Source: an uncultured Spirochaetales bacterium
Lineage (GTDB): Bacteria > Spirochaetota > Spirochaetia > DSM-27196 > DATKUC01
DNA: 64,000 nt
NCBI GenBank assembly: GCA_964553615.1
Contig: CAZKMA010000009.1
Location: forward strand, 17,864 to 81,863
Reading direction: 5' to 3'
The notes under the pieces were generated by a model, which saw only the letters and a program-made list of their open reading frames with translations, was not told the origin of the DNA and made no database searches. Every line of letters starts with the position of its first letter. The first letter of the stretch is position 1. A program made the position numbers and the translations under genes. Shown here piece after piece: positions 9,008-41,998 of this stretch.

Positions 9008-10288
9008 ATGGACAGATACATTATCGACGGAAGTTTCCCGCTCAAGGGTCGCACCAAGGCAAGTGGGAACAAGAATGCGGCTCTCCCCTGTCTCGCTGCC
9101 ACTTTGCTCACTGATGAAACTGTGGTGCTCTCGAACATACCGGAGATAGAGGACGTGCAGGTTGTAACCGAGATTCTGGAAACCCTCGGTTGCACGGTCG
9201 AGCATCGGTCCCCGGGGACCTTTGCCGTTACAACCCACGATATCAGTCGAAACGACATACCAATTGAGCTTGCTCGGCGCATCCGCGCGTCCATTCTGTT
9301 TGCCGGTCCCATGCTTGCGCGCACCGGCAAAGTCGTCCTCCCTCCCCCGGGAGGCGACGTCATCGGACGCAGACGGTTGGATACCCATTTTCTTGCTCTG
9401 CAGAATCTCGGTGCGCGAATCGAGGCGGATGGCCAGTTCAAACTCACCACGAACAAACTGGTCGGAGACGATATTTTCCTCGATGAGGCGTCGGTAACGG
9501 CGACCGAAAACACCATCATGGCTGCAGTTCTCGCCGAAGGTCAGACGCGGATCGAAAACGCGGCCTCGGAACCGCACATACAGGATCTCTGCCGGCTGCT
9601 CATCGAAATGGGAGCGAAAATTACCGGAATAGGTTCGAACATCCTTTACATAGACGGGGTGAAGAAGCTCCATGGAGCGGAATATCGCATCGGTTCGGAT
9701 TACATGGAAGTCGGTTCCTTTATCGGTCTTGCCGCAGTAACGCGGGGAGACATTGAGATCGACGATGCCTGCCCTTCTCAGTTGAAGATGACCAAGCTCG
9801 CCTTTGCGAAACTCGGTATTCACTGGGAACAGGAAGGAAACTCCATCCATGTCTCGGCCGGACAGACCCTCCGGGTCGTGCCCGACATGGGCGGACAGAT
9901 ACCGAAGATAGATGACGCACCCTGGCCCGGTTTTCCGCCGGATCTTGTGAGCATTATGCTGGTTGTCGCAACGCAGGTGGAGGGCACAATCCTTATCCAC
10001 GAGAAGATGTTCGAATCCCGTATGTTCTTCGTCGACAAGCTCATCGGCATGGGAGCGCGCATCATCCTGTGCGATCCCCATCGATCCGTCGTTAACGGTC
10101 CGAGTCGACTACGCGGTTCCGACCTTGTCTCCCCGGATGTCCGTGCCGGCATGGCAATGGTCATTGCCGCCTTGTGCGCGGAAGGGCAGAGCACCATTCA
10201 AAATGTATATCAGATCGAACGTGGCTACGAGAACCTCGAGCGGCGCCTGCAACTGCTCGGTGCGCGAATCAAGCGCGTGGAGGAATAG
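9008..10288 (+). CDS. murA: UDP-N-acetylglucosamine 1-carboxyvinyltransferase
   Basis: [22 protein letters not shown] (Asp at the fosfomycin-target Cys position), [19 protein letters not shown]. True start ATG 9008. Confidence 0.97.
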
Positions 10289-11081
10289 TCCGCTCCGGCA
10301 CCGTTACGGAATCCCGGATCCGGAGGATGGTGTCGTAAGCAGTGCGGATCCGTATAAAGGCCGCCGCGGATGCCGCCCGCTGTCGTTCGTCCAGACTTCC
10401 GAGGGTGTCCGGATGAAACTGTGCCGCAAGCGTTCGGAAAACCGCCCGAATTTCGGCCGTCGCCGCGTCCGGCGGGACACCGAGGATTGCGTATGCATCT
10501 TTGAGCCCGCGATCATTCGCCTCCGCATCGATATTCAGCAATTCGAATAGCTTGCGCATCTCCTTCCGTATCTCTCCGGAGTCGGACCAGACCATGGCGG
10601 AAAGCAGCTCCGCTACCTCGCCGCGCCGGTATTCGCCGAAGGACACCGTAACGGAGTTCTCGGCTTCGTCCGTCAGATGTGCTTGCAGACAAAGTGCCAG
10701 CTCGGAAACGTTCAGCCCGGCAGACAGGCGCACCGCCTGATCAATTGAACGATTTATGAGGTGAGCCCGCCGGCGGAAATTGCGTGAAACCGGAGGACGT
10801 CGCAGAAATGCCCTGAGCAGATCGATCTGCCGCACCAGAACCGCTCCCTGGAGAACACAGGCATACACCACTACCCCGATCAGAGCGAGCGATGCGCGAT
10901 CAATTCCGGGCGGAGCGCTTCCAAGCGGATTGAGAAAGAACCGCCGATACAGCGTCCGGTTCCGTCGTTCACGGAGAACCTGGTCAACAAGATACCCGAT
11001 GACAAAGCCGAAGAGAACGCCGAACGGACCCGCAACGATGCCCGCAGCGGCTCCAATCAGTCGCCCGAAAATTACCGGCAT
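10269..11081 (-). CDS. djlA: DjlA-like membrane-anchored J-domain co-chaperone
   Basis: N-terminal Gly-rich TM ([20 protein letters not shown]); C-terminal J domain AYAILGV...QFHPD. Confidence 0.75.
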
Positions 11082-11083
11082 GG

Positions 11084-12805
11084 CTACTCCGTCGACTGCG
11101 CCGCGAGGGTCAGAAGCGCAAGTCCAAGGAGAACCGCCTGCGTGGCAACGAGCACCACGAGTGTAACCGTGAAGCCGGTATACAGCTGCAGGAATCCCAG
11201 AATCAGCCGAAATCCGTAGGTATACAGCCGGACGGCGTAATTGATAACGAATGGAACCACCGGGATGAGAAGCAGCGCAAGGAGCGGGGGCCTCGTCAGG
11301 TATCGGCTGCGCAACCTCCAGCCAAGACTGGTTGCAAAAAGTGACAAAACCACGAAACTGAACGGCATGAGCAGCCTGAGGAGAATCTCCAGATAGATGG
11401 GTTCCGGAGAGTACCCATACGAACGGAGCATCTTCACCGATGTCCAGAGGGGCACCAGGCCAACCGATGCGAGATGACCGGACCCCGCTGCAATCATATC
11501 CAGATCCGACGGCGGAACAGCCAGCCGGAAAACCGGCCCGGTATCCTTCGGTATGGCCCCGGCATATACGGTCGGCTCAATGCGGTTGTCTGCGTCCTCC
11601 CGGTCTATCGCGCGCAGCACGAGGTGCTTTCCTATCACCTTGCCATACGGTGCCTTCAGATGCAGCAGCACCTTACCGTCGGGAGAAATACGGAACAGTT
11701 CGACATCCATTGCATATATCCCCTGCGGGACGGTCACGAGCTTCCCGAGGTAGAGAAACTCGGTGTATTTGTCGGTACGCCCATTCAGGAACAGGACCTG
11801 TTGAACACCCGGCAGCGACGCGATTCCGGTTACTTCGTCGGTGAAAAAGGAAATACGACGCACGGCTTCCTTCGCCGCTGCAAGGTATCTTTTCACGTCC
11901 GGGTCCTGGGGAACCTTCTGTGAGAGCGCCAGGAAGGTGTAGTAGGCATCTATCGACTTGTCCGACTCGAGGTCGAGAAACCCTTTTCGCTTCTGCTCGA
12001 AAATGCTCGCCTGCTCTTTCTGGAGCTTGGAAAGGTCGACCTGCTGTATCTTGTCCAGAGACCGGGACTGAAGGCGTCTGGCGTCCGGCAGCCCTGCGTC
12101 AGATTGGAGCGCCAGCGTCGCGTAATAGTAGGAAGAGAAGTAGTCCTCGTTCGTGAAATAGGTGTTCCCTCGCGCAAGAAGCTCCGGACCCGAGAGCCCG
12201 TCCGGCGCGCCTGTTACGGGAGGAACCGAATCAGCCTTCCTGCTGCCGGATTCAGGCCCGGGTTCCGAAAGAAGCCGGGCTCTCGCGCTTCGAAACAGTT
12301 CGTCGCCACGATCATCCAGCGGATTTATCGCTCGATACTGAGTAGAGCGGGTAAGCGCGATCTGATACTTCCCGTCTTTCAACGCGGCAGTGGCAGTCTC
12401 AAGCAGTTCCCGGGAAAACGCGGTGTTGTAGGTGTAGGTGTCCAGTTGGAGCACCTTCTGCGGCATAATCCATTCCCGAGAAAACGCATACACAAGCGTC
12501 AGAAAGAGTAGAAGAACTATGGGTACCCTCACGAGAGATGGAAAACTGGCGGACCGTCCGGCACCTACCCGAAGATCCATGTCGTGAATAAAGACCGAAA
12601 AACCGAGCAACAGCGCAGTACACTGCAGAGGAATCGCGTAATCGATCACATTCACGAGCGAGTTGTTGAACACCCATCCCCAATAGTAGATGGAGAGCAC
12701 CTCACGTACGGGAAACTGAAAGAGTGAAAGAAAAAGGAAATACAGGAATCCGGCAAGATAGGTCAGGAACACGATCAGGACGATCCGGCTGCTCACTCTA
12801 CTCAC
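11084..12805 (-). CDS. Multi-pass membrane protein, divergent LptF/LptG-like architecture with a TPR-like helical insert
   Basis: Three N-terminal TMs ending in SREWIMPQ, a large helical then beta-rich soluble region, then EILLRLLMPFSFVVLSLFATSLGWRLR and three C-terminal TMs. GTG start overlaps the upstream stop. Confidence 0.55.
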   Translation of the reverse strand: MSRVSSRIVLIVFLTYLAGFLYFLFLSLFQFPVREVLSIYYWGWVFNNSLVNVIDYAIPLQCTALLLGFSVFIHDMDLRVGAGRSASFPSLVRVPIVLLLFLTLVYAFSREWIMPQKVLQLDTYTYNTAFSRELLETATAALKDGKYQIALTRSTQYRAINPLDDRGDELFRSARARLLSEPGPESGSRKADSVPPVTGAPDGLSGPELLARGNTYFTNEDYFSSYYYATLALQSDAGLPDARRLQSRSLDKIQQVDLSKLQKEQASIFEQKRKGFLDLESDKSIDAYYTFLALSQKVPQDPDVKRYLAAAKEAVRRISFFTDEVTGIASLPGVQQVLFLNGRTDKYTEFLYLGKLVTVPQGIYAMDVELFRISPDGKVLLHLKAPYGKVIGKHLVLRAIDREDADNRIEPTVYAGAIPKDTGPVFRLAVPPSDLDMIAAGSGHLASVGLVPLWTSVKMLRSYGYSPEPIYLEILLRLLMPFSFVVLSLFATSLGWRLRSRYLTRPPLLALLLIPVVPFVINYAVRLYTYGFRLILGFLQLYTGFTVTLVVLVATQAVLLGLALLTLAAQSTE

Positions 12806-13766
12806 TGTCGATCTCCCGTTTCCACCGATCAAAGGGCGGCAGGAGGACGTTAATGACAAACAGGAAAAATCCGATCAGGAGAATACCCGCCGGGGCGACG
12901 TAGGAGACAAAACGCGGCTGCACGATGGCGGCTGCGAATTCCCGAAACGAAGAGCTCTGGAGAAAGGTCCCGGCCGCGAGAAGCAACCGAAGCGCTGCGA
13001 ACGCAAGGATGCCGTTGAAAAGCGGCCAACGCGTCAGACGGATCAGGAACCAGAAGCCGGTCACACAGAACACGAACGCGAACACGGTACCAAGATACAG
13101 GGCGGAGTACCAGCGGGGTTGACCCCAGAAATAGTGTCCAAGCCCGCGTGCGTCCGCAAAGAGCGATTCGAGCACCGGCGCCGGTTGAAACATGTGCACG
13201 AAGGACGTTGCCGAATCGGCAATTCGGTACTCTCTCCCTGTTTCGGGTATTCGAATCTGATGTGTCTTCGGATCTACAAGCGCCTCATGGACCAGACGGA
13301 ACCCCGGTTCTTCGCCGTGACGGTAAACCGTCACATTTGTGAGGCTCAACCCCACCACCGATTCGGCGTAGAGATAGTCCTCTCCGAATCGGTAAACAAG
13401 TTTCGAAACAACGGTGTGAGAGGGGGGAATAGTCGGAGATAGTGAGACTCGGACCGCCTGGACACCGTAAATTCCGGAAACAAGAGCGGCCCCCGAAACT
13501 GCAGTCAGCAGAAACAGTGCAGTGAAACGAAACCGGCTCACGTTGAGCACCGGGAAAAGGGCAACGACAATTGAGATAAGGACTGCAACCGGATACACCT
13601 CGTGCAATCCGTTCAGCATCACGATTGAGAACAGTCTGGTGGACAGGCCTCGGCCCGGAATGTACGCCGCTCCCCAGACGGAAAGCACGTACAGCCCCAC
13701 CAGCAGAGCCGTGGTGAGCAGGCACACCAGGACGAAGCGAACGGGTACCAGGACTGCACTTTTCAC
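12798..13766 (-). CDS. Multi-pass membrane protein, possible divergent LptF/LptG-like permease
   Basis: Three TMs, a beta-rich loop (LYAESVVGLSLTNVTVYR), three more TMs. Start moved to GTG 13766, 8 nt after TTGCAA-17-TGtTACGAT. Confidence 0.55.
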   Translation of the reverse strand: MKSAVLVPVRFVLVCLLTTALLVGLYVLSVWGAAYIPGRGLSTRLFSIVMLNGLHEVYPVAVLISIVVALFPVLNVSRFRFTALFLLTAVSGAALVSGIYGVQAVRVSLSPTIPPSHTVVSKLVYRFGEDYLYAESVVGLSLTNVTVYRHGEEPGFRLVHEALVDPKTHQIRIPETGREYRIADSATSFVHMFQPAPVLESLFADARGLGHYFWGQPRWYSALYLGTVFAFVFCVTGFWFLIRLTRWPLFNGILAFAALRLLLAAGTFLQSSSFREFAAAIVQPRFVSYVAPAGILLIGFFLFVINVLLPPFDRWKREIDSE

Positions 13767-13865
13767 AACGGCTGATCGTAACACGGCGCATGGACTCTTG
13801 CAAGCGGACCAATAAAGCGTTACCCGGTCACAAGATATGAGTATATCTGTGGGGTTTTCCGCATT

Positions 13866-14110
13866 CAATACACAGGTTATCCACAGGGTGCGGGACGCGT
13901 GTCCGCATTCTTCCCATTTGCAGTAATTCTGCGCCGAAACGAGTTTTTTGTGAAGAAAGGCATTGACTCTGATTAAACCGTTTGTCAATAAGGAGTTATT
14001 GGATTCCCGGGAAAATGCCGGTTGAAAACTACGATTCTGTACCCCATATATCCTACAAGGATGTGTAGCGGATAGGCTGAATCTATTGTTTTATTAACAG
14101 GTTATCCACA
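13866..14110. other. DnaA-box cluster in an AT-rich intergenic region (candidate oriC)
   Basis: Perfect TTATCCACA at 13877-13885 and 14102-14110. Each is preceded across GG by a degenerate box (CAATACACA 13866-13874; TTATTAACA 14091-14099). Reverse 1-mismatch box TGTGAAGAA at 13949-13957. Confidence 0.65.
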
Positions 14111-14131
14111 ACCAATGTGGTACGTATATTG

Positions 14132-14800
14132 CTAAAACAGGCAGTAGCCCTGACCATGAGCCGTCTCTATCAGCTCACCGTTGCCCGGGGGGACCACCAC
14201 ATGCAGCTTTTTTCGTATGTGAGACACATGCATATCCACCACACGTGAGTCAGGCGCTTCGCGCCCCCACAGCGCAAAATAGAGCGCCTGCCGGGTAACA
14301 ACCCCGCCTCGATGCCGCGCAAGCATTGCCAGTATGCGATATTCGGGATAAGAGAGCGGGAGCTCACCAAGCGGACCGACAACACGGTCACGAAGTACGC
14401 TCAATGCCCCCCATGCATAGCCGATCCGCACTTCGAAAGCCTGCCGCGAGACCCGTGCCCAGAGTTCCTCTGCGTCCCAGGGCTCGCGAAGGTAGTCACA
14501 GCAGCCAAGAATGAACGCTTCCGATATGGCAGACGAGCCGCCATACGCTATGACCGGAGTACCCTCGACATTTGAAGTTTCGAAAAGTGTGTACATCCAT
14601 CGGACAGGCAGCACAACGACGTCACCCGGTCCGTCTTCGATGTCGACTTGATTGATTGCGTCGCTACCGTCAGGCGTGTCGCCGTAAACAACCTGAACCG
14701 AGGCAGGAAGCCCCCCGCGTTGGAAAAAAAACCGGACGCTCTCGCCCAGCGGACGATCGTCCGTTAGAAGAAGGACAACAGGATCATCCACCTGCCTCAT
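14132..14800 (-). CDS. OmpR/PhoB-type winged-helix regulator with an atypical (pseudo-)receiver domain
   Basis: C-terminal LSYPEYRILAMLA...SRVVDMHVSHIRKKL...IETAHGQGY. Receiver has DVVVLP at the phospho-Asp site and DYLREP instead of DYLxKP. Confidence 0.85.
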   Translation of the reverse strand: MRQVDDPVVLLLTDDRPLGESVRFFFQRGGLPASVQVVYGDTPDGSDAINQVDIEDGPGDVVVLPVRWMYTLFETSNVEGTPVIAYGGSSAISEAFILGCCDYLREPWDAEELWARVSRQAFEVRIGYAWGALSVLRDRVVGPLGELPLSYPEYRILAMLARHRGGVVTRQALYFALWGREAPDSRVVDMHVSHIRKKLHVVVPPGNGELIETAHGQGYCLF

Positions 14801-21332: not shown

Positions 21333-22773
21333 GCACTGAAGGGTGAATCTGGCCCTGCTTGAGCATCTGCACCGCGTCGTTGAGAACCGTGTCGTACTCC
21401 AGATCATAAACGACCGGAGTGCTGGTGAGACGGGCCATTTCGTTCTTTATGAGATTCCGGACAAGGCGGCCATCCAGGTCTATTCCCTCACTTTTCAAGC
21501 CGTTCAGGAACGCTTCGACATCCGCCGCACCCGGCTTCGGATGCTTCTCGACGAACTTCTGGACGCGCTGTTCACTCAAGAGCTTCACGTAGGCCTTCTG
21601 CTGATCTTCGGTGAGCTTTGGCTGGGTTATGATCCGGTTCGGCTCGATCCCCTTCTTGTCGATGAACTCCCCGTTGGGTGTAAAGTACTTTGCCATCGTC
21701 AGACGGAATCCGCCTTCTCCGACATTCCGGACCTGCTGCACGGAGCCCTTGCCGTAGGTCTTTTCGCCAATCAGGTAACCCCGTCCGCGATCCTTCAGGG
21801 CACCGGCGAGGATTTCTGCAGCCGAGGCCGTGCCACCATCCACGAGCACCGCAATGGGAAGGTCGTTTGGTACAATCTGCCCGGGCGTCGCATTAAAGGT
21901 CTGATTCTCGCTCGAAACACGGCTGTGGGTACCGACTATGAGACCACTGGAATAGAAGAGGTCCGCGGTATCGATAACCGCATTCAACAGACCACCGGGG
22001 TCGTTGCGGAGGTCTATCACCATGGATGAGTATTTGTGCTGCTTGAAGAAGCTGATAGCCTCCCGGACACGTTCTGCGGTGTGGGGAGTGAACTGGATAA
22101 TCCGCAGATATCCGATCCCACCTTGTGCTGAGGAGTCGATCGGTATCATATCCCACTTCACGGTCGGCACCTCGATAATTGTGCGCTTGAGCGTGACGGG
22201 AAACTCAAGAGACTCGCCGCGCCGCACGGTAATGGTAACCTGGGTGCCCGGAGCACCGCGAAGTCTGTTCACCGCATCGTCGACAGTCATATCGGCAGTA
22301 GAGTCCTTTCCAATTTTTGCAATAAGATCGCCCGCATGGATTCCGGCGTGGAATGCGGGAGTGTCTTCGATCGGAGATACAACCTCTATGTAGCCGGGGG
22401 TCTTCTGCCCCTCCGGCAGAGGCTGCTTGGATATGTACATTCCAACCCCGCCAAACTCCCCGGAAGTCGTATCCGTGAGACTTCTCATCTGATCGGAAGT
22501 CAGATACGCCGAGAACGGGTCGTTCAGACTCTCGAACATGCCCTTCATTGCCCCTTCCACCAGCACTTTCGGGTCGACCGAGTCTACGTAGTTGTTCTGT
22601 ACGAACTGGAACACCTGGTTGAACATAGAGAGCAACCGCTGTGTTTCGGCATCCTGACTCTGTGCAAATACGGGCGGAACAAATACAAAGACGGTGAGAA
22701 CTGCCGAAAGAACGGCGGTTGTGGCTATCCACACGAGTCTTTCGCGACTTTTTCTACTTGCGGAACGGTTCAT
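21307..22773 (-). CDS. ctpA: Carboxy-terminal processing protease (S41A, PDZ)
   Basis: GEFGGVG, DLRNDPGGLL, TASAAEILAGALKD, TYGKGSVQ. Start ATG 22773 with GGAG SD. Confidence 0.93.
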   Translation of the reverse strand: MNRSASRKSRERLVWIATTAVLSAVLTVFVFVPPVFAQSQDAETQRLLSMFNQVFQFVQNNYVDSVDPKVLVEGAMKGMFESLNDPFSAYLTSDQMRSLTDTTSGEFGGVGMYISKQPLPEGQKTPGYIEVVSPIEDTPAFHAGIHAGDLIAKIGKDSTADMTVDDAVNRLRGAPGTQVTITVRRGESLEFPVTLKRTIIEVPTVKWDMIPIDSSAQGGIGYLRIIQFTPHTAERVREAISFFKQHKYSSMVIDLRNDPGGLLNAVIDTADLFYSSGLIVGTHSRVSSENQTFNATPGQIVPNDLPIAVLVDGGTASAAEILAGALKDRGRGYLIGEKTYGKGSVQQVRNVGEGGFRLTMAKYFTPNGEFIDKKGIEPNRIITQPKLTEDQQKAYVKLLSEQRVQKFVEKHPKPGAADVEAFLNGLKSEGIDLDGRLVRNLIKNEMARLTSTPVVYDLEYDTVLNDAVQMLKQGQIHPSVHEAVPATP

Positions 22774-23386: not shown

Positions 23387-24529
23387 ATGCACGTACTCCC
23401 GATTGCCAGCGGGAAGGGGGGTGTCGGAAAGTCTCTCCTCGCGGCCAACATCGCCATTGTTCTTGCGCAGGCAGGCAAGCGCGTCATTCTCGCCGACCTG
23501 GATCTCGGGGGCTCCAATCTTCACCTCATTCTGGGTCTTCGGAACATAACCTCGGGCATCGGCACGATCATAGGACACGCCAAAGCAGACTTCGACGAGA
23601 TCATTGTGACTACCGAGTATGACGGGCTCCGTTTTATTCCTGGCGATGCGGAAATCCCCGGTATTGCAAACATATCGAGTGCGCAGAAACGAACCCTCAT
23701 CAGAAAACTCATGTCGCTGGACGCCGATTATCTGATACTCGATCTCGGTGCGGGAACAAACTTCAACATTCTGGATTTCTTCCTTGTCTCGGGAAACGGA
23801 ATCATCGTGACCACACCAACTCCGACTGCCACCGTAAATGCGTATCTCTTCCTCAAGAACGTGGTCTTCCGCATCATGAACACGGCGTTCAAGCGGAACT
23901 CCGAAGCAGCGAAATATCTGGACAGTCTGAAAAAGGAGGGGACTCAGCTCCAGCGCGTGTACATCATGCAACTCCTCGAGCATATCCGCTCTATAGACCC
24001 TGCGAGTCACGCGGCGTTCGAAGGGGCAATGTCCCGGTTTCATCCCCGGCTGGTCCTGAATATGATGGAAGATCCGAAGGATGCAGACAAAGCAACCCGT
24101 TTTCGCAGAAGCTGTCGGCAATATCTCGGATTGGATGTGGAGCATCTCGGCATCATCTATCGTGATGAAATCCAGGATATAGCGCTGCAGTCCCGGCTGC
24201 CCGTCGTCATCTACAAGCCGGCAGCAGTACTTTCTCTGGCAGTCTATCGGATAGCTGACAAACTGCTGCAGCTCGGAGAAGACGCCGATGGATCGCTCGG
24301 TCTTGAAACGATCGACGAGTCATACGAGACGGCCGAAATGGAAGCTGAGATTGATTTTGAAGCCAAGATGGACTACGTTGAAGACCTGCTCCATACCGGT
24401 GCGCTGACTCAGGGAGACCTCGTCGAAGCGGTAAAGACGCAGCAATACGAAATCAATCAGCTCCGGCGCGAAAATCAGCTTCTGAAGTCGAAGCTGCTCA
24501 AGGCTGCCGGACAGGGTTTCCATCTATAG
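23387..24529 (+). CDS. MinD/FlhG (YlxH)-like P-loop ATPase with a C-terminal coiled coil
   Basis: ASGKGGVGKS deviant Walker A, DLDLGGSNL, ILDLGAGT. Confidence 0.88.
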   Translation: MHVLPIASGKGGVGKSLLAANIAIVLAQAGKRVILADLDLGGSNLHLILGLRNITSGIGTIIGHAKADFDEIIVTTEYDGLRFIPGDAEIPGIANISSAQKRTLIRKLMSLDADYLILDLGAGTNFNILDFFLVSGNGIIVTTPTPTATVNAYLFLKNVVFRIMNTAFKRNSEAAKYLDSLKKEGTQLQRVYIMQLLEHIRSIDPASHAAFEGAMSRFHPRLVLNMMEDPKDADKATRFRRSCRQYLGLDVEHLGIIYRDEIQDIALQSRLPVVIYKPAAVLSLAVYRIADKLLQLGEDADGSLGLETIDESYETAEMEAEIDFEAKMDYVEDLLHTGALTQGDLVEAVKTQQYEINQLRRENQLLKSKLLKAAGQGFHL

Positions 24530-24532
24530 AGA

Positions 24533-27500
24533 TTGGTAAAAGACATGCCAAAAAGCGATGTACAGGTCCATGCCACCGTCGAGCTCGAACTGAGCCCCGA
24601 CGGATCAGAAGCACACGTTCTGATCTCTCGGTCCGAAGGCGGAGAGGCCTGGACGGTAACGCGTATCCTGTCTCTCCTGTCGAGCCGCAACATTACCGGC
24701 ATAGTAACCCGGGACGAAATAGAACGGAAGCTCAAGCTCTTCGAAAACGGCAAGGAACCATCACTCAACATGACCGTCGCCAAAGGGACCCCTCCAACGG
24801 ATCCGTCTCCTGAGCGGCCTGAGTGGACCGACCACGCGGTCCCTGAGCAGATGACCGATATTGCCCGGGACTTCGTGGCCTCTGAACCTCCGCCGGAGAT
24901 AACGACCGAAGTCGTAGAGAAGATCAGACGAAAAAAGCGTGTTTTGAAAAAGTCGCACATCCCCTTCCTGCCTCCGAAAGAGGAAATCGTGGAGGTGGTG
25001 GAGCGACAGGTTCACAACGAACGGGTCTATCTCGATCCGACGGTCGAAGGCTACGGGTGGGTCGATGCGGAACAGAAGGTGGCCGACCTGTTCCCGGGAG
25101 ATCCAGGAACACCCGGCAAAGACGTATTCGGGAAGGCAGTTCCTCCGGCAGCAATCCTGGACGCGGACTACCACACCGGCAGAAATCTCAACAGAAAGCG
25201 CAATGAGTTGTTCAGCGAAACTTCCGGGTTCCTGCGGTACGGGACCAACTGGGCGGACATCATTCCATTCCGCCTTCACCGCTGGGACCTCTATCTCTCG
25301 GACGACAGGGCAACATGCTTTCTCAATCTCGAACCGGGCAGTCTCGAGGCTCCCAGGCCGACTCCGGACGAAATATTCGACGCGGCCGAAAAGCTCTCCT
25401 ATTCCCGTGAGGTACTGCTCGATCCGCAGGAGATAATCGGCCTTATCGATAACACGATTATCCACGGCAACCCGGTGCGGGGCATTTCGCTTTCCCGGAG
25501 CCGGGACGGTCGCGCCGAAGTCACGGTCAGCGAGGACCGGCTCACTGCAGTGCTCTCTGTTCGCAAGAGTCGCGGAAACGGCAAACCGCTCAAACTCCGG
25601 GATATCGGTGCAGCCATTACCGCTGCACGGTTAAAGTCCTTCGACCGTACGCGCGTCCAGAACGACGTTACCGCGTTTTACCGCGGGCCGGACGACGAAC
25701 TTACCGGTTATATCCTTGCCGAGGGAAAGGCCCCGACGAAAGGAAGAGACAGCGTCGTCGAAATTACCGGCCGTTTCTACGATCCGAAAAAAACGGAAGA
25801 GCTGAAGACACGGATCTCGGCCTCGGGGCGCAATGGTGCCATTTCCGGATCACTTGCCGCCGATTTTCCCCCGGATCTCATCGAGACCATGGCGCCGGTC
25901 CAGCCGGAACAGCGGGTCTTCAGTTACTCACAGCCCTTGACGGGCGAACCGGGCATCGACCTCTACGGACAGGCAATACCGGGAATTTCCGGAGACGAAC
26001 CCCGATTCCGGCTCTTCGAAAACGTCACGCAAAAACAGAACGTCATCATTTCCGAAGTGGAAGGTGTCCTCGATGTGGGGAAGGCCGAGGACGGAACCTA
26101 TCTGCTGCGGGTACGTCAGGATTCCGACGCACAGGTAGAGGTCCTGCTGACACCTGATCGCATGCTTGCCACTCTCTCCGTCACCGGCCGGTCGGGCATA
26201 GGACGGACCGCGAACGAAGAGATGATTCGCACGGCGCTTTCCGAAGCGGGCGTGCGCGTTGGAATAGACGAACCCGCGCTGAAGGAAGCAATCATGCAGG
26301 CGGTTACCGGGGAAGAGGTGGTGGATGCCGTCGTTGCGCGAGGTGAAATGCCGATACGCCCCGGACAGCGTGCTCTGCGCTATCTGGTCCCGGTTGCCAA
26401 CAACGCCGGTGTAAGAATCCGGGAAGACGGACGCGCGGACTACAAGAACCAGGATCGCATTACACAGGTAAGCGCAGGCACCGATATTGCCGAGATTATT
26501 CCGCCGCAGGCAGAACCCCGGGATGGTTTCGATGTAACCGGTAAGGTTATTCCCGTGGGCGAGTCGGCAAACTTCGACGCGGAGGTCGGCGCAAACGTGG
26601 CACAAACACTGCGGCCCGACGGCACCATCGTGTTTGTTGCCAAAGCGAACGGCGAGCTTGTCATTGACCGAAACATCATTTCCGTTCGTGCGGTTCATCT
26701 GATAAGGGGCGATGTAGGTCTCAAGACCGGCAATATCCGCTTTCACGGACCGGTTTCCGTTACGGGAAATGTGCGTTCAGGCTTTTTTGTCATGAGCGAT
26801 GGGGAAATTCGCGTTGGCGAAGGAGTCGAAGCGGGGCTGCTCTCCTCAGGAGAAAACATCCTGATACGGCAGGGTATTCGCGGCGGCGGCAAAGCGGTGC
26901 TGCGCACCAAGAAGAACATACTTGCGGCCTTCTGTGAACAGGCAACATTGCTTTCGGTAGGAGACATCGTAATTGACAGAAGCTGCATGCAAAGCCGCGT
27001 CAAATGCAATGGCAGACTCATTCTCACCGGAGAGAAAGGAAACCTGGTAGGAGGTCAGATACAGGCGCGCAACGGGGTTGAGGCGATGAACATCGGTTCG
27101 GATCGGAGTGCACACACCCAGATATCCTTTGGCCAAAACTACCTCATATCCGACCATATCGAGGCCGAGAGCAAGGAGATCGAGAAGCTCAAGGCACGAC
27201 TCGTGCAGGTAGACGGATATCTGAAGACCGCGGAGACACAAGCCCACCGGACAGACGGGCTCGGTCCGGACGCGGGGACCGGGAAGCCTCTATCGGCTCT
27301 GTACCAGGAAAAAACAAAGCTTTTGCGCTCCATTGAGAAACGAAATATGCGTATCTTTATGTTTCGGGAGAAGTTTGAAGAACACTTCGATTCCGCCGTC
27401 CGAGTCCGCGGAACGGTCTTTCCCGGGACGATTCTCGAGAGCCACGGACGAACCCTGGCAGTCTCGACTGCAAAGAAGAACGTTCAGTTCGTCTTTGACA

Positions 27501-27544
27501 CAACGACCGGACGCATCGAAGAGCGGCCGTTGAATAACTCCTGA
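24533..27544 (+). CDS. FapA (DUF342) family protein with repeated N-terminal domains
   Basis: Three D-[GR]x-A-x-[LV] ... A[KER]GxxP repeat units; C-terminal GDVGLKTGNIRFHGPVSVTGNV beta-solenoid and coiled coil. Confidence 0.85.
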   Translation: MVKDMPKSDVQVHATVELELSPDGSEAHVLISRSEGGEAWTVTRILSLLSSRNITGIVTRDEIERKLKLFENGKEPSLNMTVAKGTPPTDPSPERPEWTDHAVPEQMTDIARDFVASEPPPEITTEVVEKIRRKKRVLKKSHIPFLPPKEEIVEVVERQVHNERVYLDPTVEGYGWVDAEQKVADLFPGDPGTPGKDVFGKAVPPAAILDADYHTGRNLNRKRNELFSETSGFLRYGTNWADIIPFRLHRWDLYLSDDRATCFLNLEPGSLEAPRPTPDEIFDAAEKLSYSREVLLDPQEIIGLIDNTIIHGNPVRGISLSRSRDGRAEVTVSEDRLTAVLSVRKSRGNGKPLKLRDIGAAITAARLKSFDRTRVQNDVTAFYRGPDDELTGYILAEGKAPTKGRDSVVEITGRFYDPKKTEELKTRISASGRNGAISGSLAADFPPDLIETMAPVQPEQRVFSYSQPLTGEPGIDLYGQAIPGISGDEPRFRLFENVTQKQNVIISEVEGVLDVGKAEDGTYLLRVRQDSDAQVEVLLTPDRMLATLSVTGRSGIGRTANEEMIRTALSEAGVRVGIDEPALKEAIMQAVTGEEVVDAVVARGEMPIRPGQRALRYLVPVANNAGVRIREDGRADYKNQDRITQVSAGTDIAEIIPPQAEPRDGFDVTGKVIPVGESANFDAEVGANVAQTLRPDGTIVFVAKANGELVIDRNIISVRAVHLIRGDVGLKTGNIRFHGPVSVTGNVRSGFFVMSDGEIRVGEGVEAGLLSSGENILIRQGIRGGGKAVLRTKKNILAAFCEQATLLSVGDIVIDRSCMQSRVKCNGRLILTGEKGNLVGGQIQARNGVEAMNIGSDRSAHTQISFGQNYLISDHIEAESKEIEKLKARLVQVDGYLKTAETQAHRTDGLGPDAGTGKPLSALYQEKTKLLRSIEKRNMRIFMFREKFEEHFDSAVRVRGTVFPGTILESHGRTLAVSTAKKNVQFVFDTTTGRIEERPLNNS

Positions 27545-38507: not shown

Positions 38508-39674
38508 CTAAAGCCCGAGCGTCCGTCGCATGGATTCATTCGGTACCTGGCCGTCATGCGTCACCAGGGTGGCGCTCACAATTTCATCCGTCAGGTCCGG
38601 AAGAAACTGCCCGTCTTTTGTCATCGAAAGCAGGAAGGTCGCTATGTTGCGGGCATAGAGTTGACTGGCGGTATGAGCCAGGGTGGAGACGAGATTCGCA
38701 GGACCGAGAATTTTCACGCCGTGATGCTCCACGGTCTGCCCGCTCCTGGTGAGCTCGCAGTTACCGCCGCGCTCGGCGGCCAGATCGACAATCACCGAAC
38801 CCGGCGTCATCCGCTCCACCATCTCGGCGGTAATGAGAACCGGAGCCTTTCGCCCCGGAACCGATGCGGTAGTTATTACCACATCCGATTCGGCGAGTAT
38901 TCCGCCCATGAGCTCCTGTTGCCGCGTGTAGAACTCTTCTCCCATCTCCCGCGCGTATCCTCCCGCCCCTCCCGCGTCACTCGTGTCCAGCTCCATCTCG
39001 ATGAATCGCGCTCCAAGGCTTGCAACCTGCTCTTTCACCTCCGAACGCACATCGTAGGCGCTCACAACGCCGCCAAGCCGTCGCGCCGTGGCTATTGCCT
39101 GCAGGCCCGCGACCCCTGCACCCACAATGAAAATACGTGCCGGAACCACGGTTCCGGCGGCGGTCATCATCATTGGGAGCATCCGTGGAAGCGCGTCTGC
39201 TCCGACAAGCACCGCCTTGTAGCCTGAAAGGTTTGCCATCGAGGAAAGCGCATCCATGCTCTGCGCACGCGTTATCCGCGGCATGAGCTCCATTGAGAAC
39301 GACGTGATCCGCCCGTCCTTCATGACACGGAATGAACTGTCCGGCGCATATGGCTCAAGAAAGCCAATGACCGCCTGCCCCGCGCGCATGCGCGACTCCC
39401 GGATTGAGCCGCGGGCCGCCGATTCCGCCGAACCGGCTGCGGCAGCCGCTCTGACGCAAAGCAATACGTCGGCCTCGCTCAGCACTGCATCTTCTGTCTG
39501 GAGAACTCGAACACCACGTTCTTCATATGCGGAGTCCGGGTAGCCGGCCGGGTCTCCGGCACCGCGCTCCATGATCAGGGCACACCCCGCCTTCGTCAGG
39601 GCGGGTACCTGGGCAGGCACCATAGCCACCCTTCGCTCGCCCGCGGCAATCTCCCGAAAAAATCCAACTGTCAT
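38508..39674 (-). CDS. pntA: NAD(P) transhydrogenase alpha subunit part 1 (domain I)
   Basis: ERRVAMVP, PRITRAQSMDALSS, GAGVAGLQA, DLAAERGGN. ATG 39674 overlaps the upstream TGA (ATGA). Confidence 0.95.
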   Translation of the reverse strand: MTVGFFREIAAGERRVAMVPAQVPALTKAGCALIMERGAGDPAGYPDSAYEERGVRVLQTEDAVLSEADVLLCVRAAAAAGSAESAARGSIRESRMRAGQAVIGFLEPYAPDSSFRVMKDGRITSFSMELMPRITRAQSMDALSSMANLSGYKAVLVGADALPRMLPMMMTAAGTVVPARIFIVGAGVAGLQAIATARRLGGVVSAYDVRSEVKEQVASLGARFIEMELDTSDAGGAGGYAREMGEEFYTRQQELMGGILAESDVVITTASVPGRKAPVLITAEMVERMTPGSVIVDLAAERGGNCELTRSGQTVEHHGVKILGPANLVSTLAHTASQLYARNIATFLLSMTKDGQFLPDLTDEIVSATLVTHDGQVPNESMRRTLGL

Positions 39675-41224
39675 CCGTTCCTCCACGATTCAGGATGTCT
39701 GTTCACATCCTTCTGTACGAGCGCCGCAGCGATGCCACCCGAGAGAATAGCAAGCGGCATGCCGCCTCCGGGATGAACGCTCCCGCCGCAGAGATAGAGC
39801 CCCGGATAACGACGGGATCGGTTCGGGTGACGGAGAAACGCCGCGAGCGTGCTGTTCGAGCTTATTCCGTACAGACTTCCCCGGTACGACCCGGTACGTT
39901 CAGCAATCTGACCGGGATGCATCGTCTGCTCGAAAACGATCTCCCGGTCGATCCGACGGCCCAGCGCCGAACAGAGCGTATTAAGAACTCGCGGACGCAG
40001 CCTCGCCACCTCGTCGTCCCAGTCCTGACCGGAATCGTAGGGCGTATTGATCAGCACGAACCAGTTCTCGCCGCCTGTCGGCGCGTCAGCCGGGTTCACC
40101 TTCGACGTAATGTTCACATAGACCGTCGGATCCTCCGGCACTGTGACCGCACGAAAGATCTGATCGAACTCGTTCCGGTAGTCCGATGAGAAAAAGATAT
40201 TGTTTACCGACAGTTCCGGAAAGGCCGAACGCATACCCCAGTAGAAGACAATCCCGGAAGAGGAGGATTCGAGCCGTTCATACCGTTTCAGAAGCGGAGC
40301 TTCCGCGTCAACGAGCAGATTACGATAGGTCAGGGTCACATCGACATTGGAGATGACGATACCGTACGGCCGGAACTCTCCGCCAATGCGGATTCCCCGT
40401 ATCGTCCGCGTTCGGCGCATGCCGCTTTTTCCGCCCGGCGTGCCATATTCTATCCTTTCAACGTCGGCTCCGAAGTGAAACCGGACACCGAGCTCGCGGG
40501 CAAGGCGCTCGAGGGCGAGCGGAATTGATCGTATGCCGTCGGCCATCGCATATCCGCCAAGACCGTATTCAACGTGAGGAATGATGTTGAGCGTTGCTGG
40601 CGTCAGGTACGGGCTCGATCCATTGTAGGTGGCGTATCGGTCAAAGAGCTGTCGTATCTTCGGACTTTGAAAGAACGAGCGGTTGGCTGCATCCATGGTC
40701 CGCAGCGGATCTATTCGGAAAATTCGACTCAGTGACTTCCAGAAGAGCGCCGAGCCATAGGTGGACGAATCATGCAGGCTGTGCCTGAGAAAGAGGTCCC
40801 CGGCAACTTCGTAGATCCGTTTGCTGTAGGCGAGATACCGGGCAAGGTGCGCCGCAGGCTCCCCGGTCTTCGACTGGATCTCCCTGCCGAAACGGTCCGG
40901 TTCGAAGAATGCGTCGAGCGTTGTGGAATCCGGGTAGAAGTACCTGCAGATGACCGGAAGCGGAACAAAGGAGAGATACTCTTCGGCCCGCCTGCCGACG
41001 GAAGAGAAGAGATCGTCAAAGACGTCCTTCATGGTAACCAGGGACGGCCCGGTGTCGAATCGGAAACCCGATTCGGTCAGAGTGCCGGCCTTTCCGCCCA
41101 CACTATCCGAGCGTTCGTACAAATCAACCGCGAAACCTGTCGCAGCGAGCCTGATTGCGGCGGAGAGTCCGCCGAGTCCTGCTCCGATGACGGCGACGTT
41201 CGGAAGATGCGCCTCACCGTTCAT
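39671..41224 (-). CDS. Phytoene desaturase family FAD oxidoreductase (CrtI/CrtD-like)
   Basis: IGAGLGGLSAA, GGKAG, FRFDTGPSL, YATYNGSSP, GSLYG, LCGGSVHPGGGMPL. Confidence 0.9.
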   Translation of the reverse strand: MNGEAHLPNVAVIGAGLGGLSAAIRLAATGFAVDLYERSDSVGGKAGTLTESGFRFDTGPSLVTMKDVFDDLFSSVGRRAEEYLSFVPLPVICRYFYPDSTTLDAFFEPDRFGREIQSKTGEPAAHLARYLAYSKRIYEVAGDLFLRHSLHDSSTYGSALFWKSLSRIFRIDPLRTMDAANRSFFQSPKIRQLFDRYATYNGSSPYLTPATLNIIPHVEYGLGGYAMADGIRSIPLALERLARELGVRFHFGADVERIEYGTPGGKSGMRRTRTIRGIRIGGEFRPYGIVISNVDVTLTYRNLLVDAEAPLLKRYERLESSSSGIVFYWGMRSAFPELSVNNIFFSSDYRNEFDQIFRAVTVPEDPTVYVNITSKVNPADAPTGGENWFVLINTPYDSGQDWDDEVARLRPRVLNTLCSALGRRIDREIVFEQTMHPGQIAERTGSYRGSLYGISSNSTLAAFLRHPNRSRRYPGLYLCGGSVHPGGGMPLAILSGGIAAALVQKDVNRHPESWRNG

Positions 41225-41299
41225 TGCGCGCACCGGAAACACGAGTCGAAGTGAGACGTTGTGAACATGGCGACACGGTAGCCTCCGCCTGCAGGAAAG

Positions 41300-41998
41300 T
41301 CAAACTGGAACGGTCGGAATACGACTCCCGTCAAAGCGGGAACGCAACAGAATGTGGACAAGGAAGTTGCCTGAGATGAGAGAAAAGCTGTAGAAGAAAT
41401 CCTCGAGAGGGATGGTATAGACGCGCACTCCCCAGATGTGTCCGGATGAATACAGGACAACAGGTACCGCCGTCAGTACGCCGTTTGCCGCAAGAAACGG
41501 CACGTAGCAAATTCCGGCAGCCACCCAGAACCAGCTTGACATGAGTACATGCGGCGCAACAGCCGCTGCAACGAGGAAAAAAACACCGCAGACGACAAGA
41601 GCGGTCAGGGTGTATGGCTGGGAATAGAAAACGAGCCCGGCGGCAACGAAGGCCATCCCAAGTATGGCAGCAAGCCAGGACGGCATGAAAACGCCCCGTT
41701 CAGGCACGTATGCCCTGACAACCTCGTATACGAACAGACACGCGTACGGCACCGTAACGAAGAAGAGTATTTCCTCGAGCGGCAGACCCCAGATACGAAG
41801 TCGACCGGTATGCTCGACGCTGAAGTGCCAGTCGCCTCTTCTGGTGGCAAATACGTCCCAGACAACGAAAACCGCACCGACAACGAGAATCGCACTGAAG
41901 ACTGAAGGCCACCTCTTGTAGAAGGCGACCTTTCGGTCGAACGACAGGACCAGGGGAAAAAACAGCACCGCCAGATCGAGTACCAGATAAAGACTCAT
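41300..41998 (-). CDS. Lycopene cyclase, fused CrtYc/CrtYd membrane type
   Basis: Two repeats: WDVFA...GLPLEEILFFVTVPYAC and ANGVLT...TIPLEDFFY. Confidence 0.85.
   Translation of the reverse strand: MSLYLVLDLAVLFFPLVLSFDRKVAFYKRWPSVFSAILVVGAVFVVWDVFATRRGDWHFSVEHTGRLRIWGLPLEEILFFVTVPYACLFVYEVVRAYVPERGVFMPSWLAAILGMAFVAAGLVFYSQPYTLTALVVCGVFFLVAAAVAPHVLMSSWFWVAAGICYVPFLAANGVLTAVPVVLYSSGHIWGVRVYTIPLEDFFYSFSLISGNFLVHILLRSRFDGSRIPTVPV

Follow-up and report, generated by a model that had tools for sequence, protein, structure and literature searches.

In Escherichia coli, datA and DARS1/DARS2 are DnaA-box loci outside the origin which work as nucleoprotein complexes, with boxes I and II of the DARS core being oppositely oriented. 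In the same organism, DnaA acts as a roadblock or transcription factor, e.g., at asnC-mioC, nrd and dnaA P2. We know of no datA/DARS-type locus described outside a few model phyla. Likewise, DnaA is reported as a promoter roadblock or transcription factor at Borrelia dnaX-ebfC (PMC9879097) and at Pseudomonas gidA (PMC13438810). In Bacillus subtilis, clusters of DnaA boxes outside oriC (yqeG-sda, ywlB-ywlC, yycS-yydA and others) regulate neighboring genes and titrate DnaA (PMC2533591, PMC3245932), and a box density A of more than 0.3 marks stable DnaA sites in this species, oriC included (PMC2533591). For the unwinding module of origins, the rule of the basal unwinding system (BUS) calls for a DnaA box (up to 2 mismatches, optionally tandem) that is followed within 16 bp by three or more NAN trios, read on the complementary strand (PMC8287927). 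Spirochaete origins use the same box type as the locus described below (PMC8287927 supplement).

This locus is situated in a window of 64 kb, i.e., the whole stretch of DNA that was analyzed, of an uncultured spirochaete whose metagenomic sources are salt marsh and sediment and which reaches a depth of ~7x in salt-marsh samples. Its closest named relative is Salinispira, with a membrane protein that is 49% identical. The DnaA boxes occupy a spacer between two transcription units (Table 1), and the gene matches confirm the initial annotation in its description of the flanks as membrane-protein genes and a regulator. The regulator, which shows OmpR/PhoB family matches and a Trans_reg_C match of 1.5e-19 in the Pfam scan, is encoded by the last gene of an STAS / CesT-YbjN / PspA-like operon, its start overlapping the PspA-like gene by 17 nt. 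Its receiver domain is degenerate and lacks the acceptor aspartate, with an invariant proline (P65, in GDVVVLPV) at the expected phospho-acceptor position and DYLREPW in place of the usual DYLxKPF. Because of both replacements, the protein looks like a phosphorylation-independent regulator with an aspartate-less receiver. On the other side of the spacer, the gene callers place the start of the membrane-protein gene either at GTG 13784 (328 aa) or at GTG 13766 (322 aa). A conserved -10-like TACGAT lies between both GTG codons, and therefore the shorter form would possess a leaderless or near-leaderless mRNA.

Table 1. Positions of the box-bearing spacer, its DnaA boxes, further conserved elements and the flanking genes in the window.
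Feature	Position	Strand	Description
Box-bearing spacer			347-365 bp; flanked by minus-strand genes only: the OmpR-type regulator gene and the membrane-protein/LptG-like/DjlA operon
Upstream gene	14132..14800	-	OmpR/PhoB-type winged-helix regulator, 222 aa; stop codon 14132-14134
Non-coding block after the regulator stop codon	14119..14131	.	GGTACGTATATTG; 13 nt, adjoining the stop codon
Pair I, regulator-proximal box	14102..14110	+	Perfect TTATCCACA
Pair I, second box	14091..14099	+	TTATTAACA; 1 mismatch to TTATNCACA; head-to-tail, 2-bp gap
Conserved block beside pair I	14053..14084	.	32 bp; gene-strand pattern A..TTC.G.C.AT...CTA.ACA...TT..AG; spaced invariant positions
Stretch between the pairs	13886..14090	.	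AT-rich, fast-evolving; length constrained
Pair II, perfect box	13877..13885	+	TTATCCACA
Pair II, weak box	13866..13874	+	CAATACACA; 2-bp gap to the perfect box
Third in-phase weak box	13855..13863	+	TTTTCCGCA; 11-bp register
Promoter	13775..13803	-	Putative, sigma-70-like; -35 TTGCAA at 13798-13803, 17-bp spacer, extended -10 TGT-TACGAT with TACGAT at 13775-13780
Downstream operon	10269..13784	-	Membrane protein, then LptF/LptG-like permease, then DjlA-like J-protein
Membrane protein	12798-13766 or 12798-13784	-	322/328 aa; first gene of the downstream operon
LptF/LptG-like permease	11084-12796	-	Downstream operon
DjlA-like membrane J-protein	10269-11081	-	Downstream operon

Both operons are expressed according to metatranscriptome contigs. 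None of these spans 13734-14215, which, given that contigs cannot show absence, agrees only weakly with a non-origin regulatory module; a transcription start did not emerge from the contigs either. A tRNA search and an Rfam search gave no match. Beyond the right end of the window, ~3 kb with purL/purQ-like genes were added by exact-protein look-ups, whereas the look-up at the left end gave no match. Elsewhere in the window (39671-41998, minus strand), a lycopene-cyclase domain protein adjoins a flavin amine-oxidase/phytoene-desaturase-like protein, which suggests carotenoid synthesis in the source spirochaete. On the plus strand (23387-27544), the gene of a P-loop ATPase of the ParA/MinD type precedes that of a 1003-aa protein in which three FapA N-terminal regions and a FapA beta-solenoid occur. 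This pair is of the flagellar-placement type rather than a chromosomal parAB.

The initial annotation had singled out a 14-bp repeat, and this repeat, ACAGGTTATCCACA, is indeed present twice on the plus strand (13872-13885 and 14097-14110). Likewise, the degenerate box described 2 bp before each perfect box was found at both places (CAATACACA and TTATTAACA). Perfect DnaA boxes of the form TTATCCACA occur only twice in the 64-kb window, both times within the spacer. Shuffled windows let expect 0.18 such boxes and reached two of them in 2/100 shuffles, and the chance of a second perfect box in the same orientation less than 350 bp away is ~2e-3. In total, the spacer comprises two perfect and 2-4 weaker boxes in 347-365 bp. 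The third in-phase weak box exists only in the window and in one further lineage (L010/L014), in which it is 1 bp off the register. Between the pairs, the window has two oppositely oriented boxes with one mismatch each (13949-13957 and 13983-13991). The further 1-mismatch boxes proposed earlier, at 13949-13957 and 13759-13767, hold against relaxed forms of the consensus but not against TTATCCACA, as neither appears in its 1-mismatch list. The former, TTCTTCACA on the minus strand, shows 1 mismatch to TTATNCACA and 2 to TTATCCACA; the latter, CTTTTCACA, features 2 mismatches to TTATNCACA and overlaps the start of the downstream gene. The box density A (Ishikawa measure) amounts to 0.137 at the spacer, which is 9x that of the second-best position in the window, and to 0.02-0.14 in the relatives. 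The value of the spacer is below the stable-binding threshold of 0.3, which was calibrated on B. subtilis, a member of another phylum.

Conservation was studied in six lineages with the same gene order, comprising the window, L005/L009, L008, L010/L014, L011 and L012. The scan of a genome collection gave four metagenome-assembled loci and no complete chromosome. The membrane proteins of the relatives are 44-51% identical to that of the window and the regulators 71-82%. All four box positions are kept in 6/6 lineages, and the rest of the spacer has diverged. The perfect box of pair II is invariant at 9/9 bases in the six lineages (TGTGGATAA), and its weak neighbor retains a TGTG.A core common to all of them. 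In pair I, the regulator-proximal position of the relatives is taken by a box with 0-1 mismatch (GTATACACA, ATATGCACA, TTATTCACA). The second position is a perfect TTATCCACA in four relatives, and in the window it is the proximal box that is perfect, i.e., the high-affinity anchor has swapped its position inside the pair. L010 even features two perfect TTATNCACA boxes in pair I. The variable base of the boxes corresponds to the N of TTATNCACA, with all four bases occurring at one position of pair I. Variation at this base and the swap of the anchor match the type of degeneracy to be expected for DnaA boxes, and the turnover within pair I is best read as selection for overall affinity.

The distances are preserved to a similar extent. 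In the six lineages, 19-20 bp separate the stop codon from pair I and 223-227 bp pair I from box IIa. Box IIa is followed after 79-83 bp by the TTGCAA -35 in all lineages, with 17 bp between -35 and -10. Spacing is thus fixed within +/-2-4 bp, with other spacers of the same loci ranging from 79 to 197 bp. Given that the four positions are kept in five further lineages, the box cluster can be taken to exceed chance. A regulator search found no type-strain orthologue, and the sole 'S. pacifica' homologue sits on a 6.6-kb contig. Besides, a lone perfect TTATCCACA was noticed at the end of a 100-kb contig of one relative (L005:31-39), ~90 bp upstream of a gene for a CtpB-like S41 protease. Its counterpart in the window is only TGTGGATAG, inside the orthologous coding region (22725-22733).

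The spacer is further characterized by its base composition and by several conserved elements. The low GC content of about 38% estimated earlier for 14041-14130 was reproduced, with 0.378 compared to 0.57-0.58 for the flanking genes. The whole spacer has a GC content of 0.444 (window: 0.567), falling to 30-38% in its center. It belongs to the 0.1-0.2% most AT-rich stretches of 40-100 bp in the window and is the most AT-rich among the long intergenic regions, and repeated AT-rich 13-mers are absent from it. The 32-bp block beside pair I might be bound by a nucleoid protein that bends DNA; the IHF consensus WATCAANNNNTTR is absent in 6/6 lineages. A small ORF was considered for the conserved block and rejected by alignment, an ATG reading existing in L011 but not in the window. 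The 13 nucleotides after the regulator stop codon are near-invariant in the six lineages (GGTACGTATCTTG in the relatives), while nearby codons change synonymously. They are overlapped by three successive NAN trio-like triplets (14126-14134), which extend into the stop codon. The putative promoter in front of the membrane-protein gene matches the consensus and is conserved as TTGCAA-N17-TGTTACGAT. Another promoter-like sequence, TTGAAT-N17-TATACT at 13868-13840, is not kept in the relatives and was set aside in favor of TTGCAA/TACGAT. The terminator scan revealed no intrinsic terminator in the spacer. Additionally, GCGGGACGCGTGTCCGC forms an imperfect GC-rich hairpin after pair II (13902-13918) which is not kept in the relatives, and TCCGCATTC occurs twice (13858-13866 and 13902-13910).

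Compared with the described systems, the locus shares most with the clusters of B. subtilis in being composed of intergenic TTATNCACA boxes away from the origin, kept among related species and beside promoters. As both adjoin promoters, DnaA could regulate the neighbors and at the same time be titrated. Unlike these clusters, the spirochaete site has fewer boxes, with an A of 0.137 compared to more than 0.3, and these are arranged as two tandem strong/weak pairs at a strict distance of 223-227 bp. With datA and DARS1/DARS2 it has in common the fixed geometry of a non-origin DnaA-box locus and, by prediction, the function as a nucleoprotein complex, but it differs in the missing IHF consensus and in boxes of one orientation. 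Same-orientation boxes with 2-bp spacing and a strong anchor beside a weak site are likewise a feature of the arrays in E. coli oriC. Tandem boxes 2 bp apart are also part of the BUS predicted for Spirochaeta thermophila (Pelliciari 2021, PMC8287927 supplement), and the GC-rich spacer and three NAN triplets of pair I resemble this system, too. In contrast to E. coli oriC and BUS, the AT-rich stretch after the triplets is missing here, the triplets are at the minimum of three, and neither skew inversion nor dnaA linkage is present. Finally, the placement of high-affinity boxes between the end of one transcription unit and the promoter of the following one is reminiscent of the roadblock and promoter sites of DnaA. 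Here, two distant pairs are found rather than one box near the promoter, and the effect on transcription is a predicted one.

Several alternative explanations have to be weighed, among which a chromosomal, second or auxiliary origin of the lineage, located away from dnaA, is the least likely and in our estimation highly improbable. An origin would be in keeping with two perfect boxes plus several weak ones inside that long spacer of the window which is richest in AT, and also with inter-box distances that, like those of enterobacterial oriC, stay constant despite divergence of the sequence. Such an origin requires a sign change of the strand skew. The skew at third codon positions of 47 genes (14 kb to the left and 50 kb to the right of the site) was regressed on gene strand and side, separating coding-strand from chromosome-strand effects. 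The replication term of the plus strand for GC3 was -0.066 on the left and -0.056 on the right, with a positive right side in 0/2000 bootstraps; the AT3 term was +0.091 and +0.072, respectively. The minus strand carries 64% of the coding bases on the left and 62% on the right, and the raw skew agrees with the regression. On either side, the pattern resembles that of a single replichore whose leading strand is the minus strand. As GC3, AT3 and strand bias keep their sign across the site, the origin reading is not supported, and the co-directional genes on both flanks argue against it as well. In the relatives, the same regression was noisy and of mixed sign due to 10-kb flanks with too few genes and was not relied on. 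Linkage to dnaA is usual at origins, though not obligatory. The earlier statement that the window holds no dnaA, dnaN or gyrB proved correct in Pfam scans of ~50 ORFs, which detected no parB, parA/parB pair or other origin-indicator gene within -14/+50 kb either. A parS-like site with up to 3 mismatches is absent from the 64-kb window, too. Pair I formally agrees with the BUS search rule, as the tandem pair is followed by a GC-rich spacer of 7-8 bp and by exactly three NAN triplets (of the type 3'-TAGAACGAT-5') 14-15 nt away in 6/6 lineages. Yet a run of three or more NAN arises in 28% of random sequences, and an AT-rich stretch after the trios is absent, the next 30 bp having 40-53% AT and encoding the C-terminus of the regulator. 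The trio-like run had been called weak from the start and indeed consists of three triplets only, followed by coding DNA. For pair II, which faces the AT-rich center, no consistent triplet run was found. Moreover, the unwinding modules predicted for three other spirochaetes lie beside dnaA, at 1552-1600 in Spirochaeta africana, 1661-1700 in Sphaerochaeta globosa and 1560-1587 in Treponema pallidum, i.e., at ~1.5-1.7 kb, which speaks against an origin at this place; those of S. thermophila and S. smaragdinae were predicted at the very end of the records (PMC8287927 supplement). The published genome of Salinispira pacifica starts at dnaA (PMC4511686). Over the 14 kb and 50 kb covered, the lack of a skew inversion (GC3 -0.066/-0.056) speaks against the proposal of an oriC separated from dnaA, as do the modest box density and the minimal trios. 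The other part of the same proposal, a DnaA-regulated or datA/DARS-like site, gains support from the strong conservation of boxes and spacing.

With regard to the latter, the site could be a DnaA sink or nucleotide-state locus in the manner of datA, DARS or the Bacillus clusters. Its main output would then be the availability of DnaA for initiation at a distant oriC, with effects on neighboring genes being secondary. The strict spacing of two strong/weak pairs together with the 32-bp block is typical of datA/DARS geometry, and the site is away from any skew inversion. Bacillus clusters, too, titrate DnaA and also regulate their neighbors (PMC3245932, PMC2533591). The lack of an IHF consensus in any lineage, the uniform orientation of the four conserved boxes, unlike the mutually opposed boxes I and II of the DARS core, and the number of only 3-5 boxes with an A under the Bacillus threshold weaken this explanation. 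In addition, the fixed 79-83 bp to the promoter point to a transcriptional role. A locus mainly acting as a sink appears rather unlikely. A true spirochaete counterpart of datA/DARS, that is, a fixed-geometry complex which tunes the level of DnaA or its nucleotide state, thereby the timing of initiation, and additionally gates the envelope operon, is likewise considered a speculative case of low probability. OmpR-family proteins typically bind direct repeats with a periodicity of 10-11 bp (PhoB, PhoP and WalR boxes). Accordingly, the repeats could be operators of the OmpR/PhoB-type regulator, with a dimer binding TGTGnAT-N4-TGTnnAT and controlling the envelope operon in a PspA-linked stress response; the match to DnaA boxes would be coincidental or secondary. 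The adjoining upstream gene encodes a Trans_reg_C winged-helix protein conserved at 71-82%, TGTGnAT-N4-TGTnnAT recurs in the 11-bp direct-repeat layout at both pairs, and a PspA-linked regulator over the adjacent envelope operon would be functionally coherent. However, 9/9 positions of TTATCCACA in pair II and a perfect TTATNCACA in pair I are kept in the six lineages, which is longer than a half-site of 6-7 bp, and the position that tolerates change coincides precisely with the N of this DnaA consensus, which an operator leaves unexplained. Furthermore, the tandem motif was not found elsewhere in the 11-21 kb of each locus, including the region upstream of the regulator's own operon. Spirochaete DnaA uses this box type (PMC8287927 supplement) and hence would bind such sites anyway. 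An operator of the regulator is therefore considered unlikely.

The explanation tentatively favored here, at a probability somewhat short of even, is a non-origin DnaA-binding module which controls or insulates the transcription of the downstream envelope operon, with occupancy by DnaA being predicted from the boxes. The architecture consists of two head-to-tail strong/weak pairs with a 2-bp gap and an 11-bp register, placed at both ends of a co-directional spacer. Any canonical DnaA would be expected to bind such good boxes. ATP-DnaA might nucleate at each pair's perfect box and from there spread cooperatively to the weak neighbor, with the 11-bp head-to-tail register letting neighboring DnaA protomers touch. 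The two complexes, 223-227 bp apart across the AT-rich DNA and the 32-bp block, could thereby form a nucleoprotein structure of fixed geometry. Bound in this way, DnaA would block read-through from the upstream psp-like operon, presumably by looping or as a roadblock, and would set the promoter activity of the membrane-protein/LptG-like/DjlA operon, the direction of this regulation being conjectural. The expression of envelope genes would consequently be tied to the initiation potential of the cell. A transcriptional output is likely, because pair I follows the end of an operon without an intrinsic terminator and pair II lies ~80 bp upstream of the -35. In each pair, selection has retained a single high-affinity anchor next to a weaker site, and it has also preserved the distances between the pairs and to the promoter. 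Still, an A of 0.137, which is less than 0.3, and the ~300 bp between pair I and the promoter, a long way for a simple operator, count against a DnaA module of this kind. Moreover, the strict spacing is equally expected of an origin or a datA-like complex, and the 11-bp direct-repeat layout would also suit an operator of the OmpR family.

For the prediction of origins, the locus is a reason for caution, as an oriC should not be called from perfect tandem DnaA boxes in an AT-rich region alone. If confirmed, it would be a clean, phylogenetically footprinted case of DnaA action away from the origin in the Spirochaetota, in which the control of replication has been little studied. Its architecture is unusually rigid, the distance between the two tandem pairs being fixed, as is that to the promoter. 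This rigidity may be used to probe insulation or regulation by DnaA oligomers and the coupling of envelope biogenesis (LptFG-like, DjlA) to the initiation cycle.
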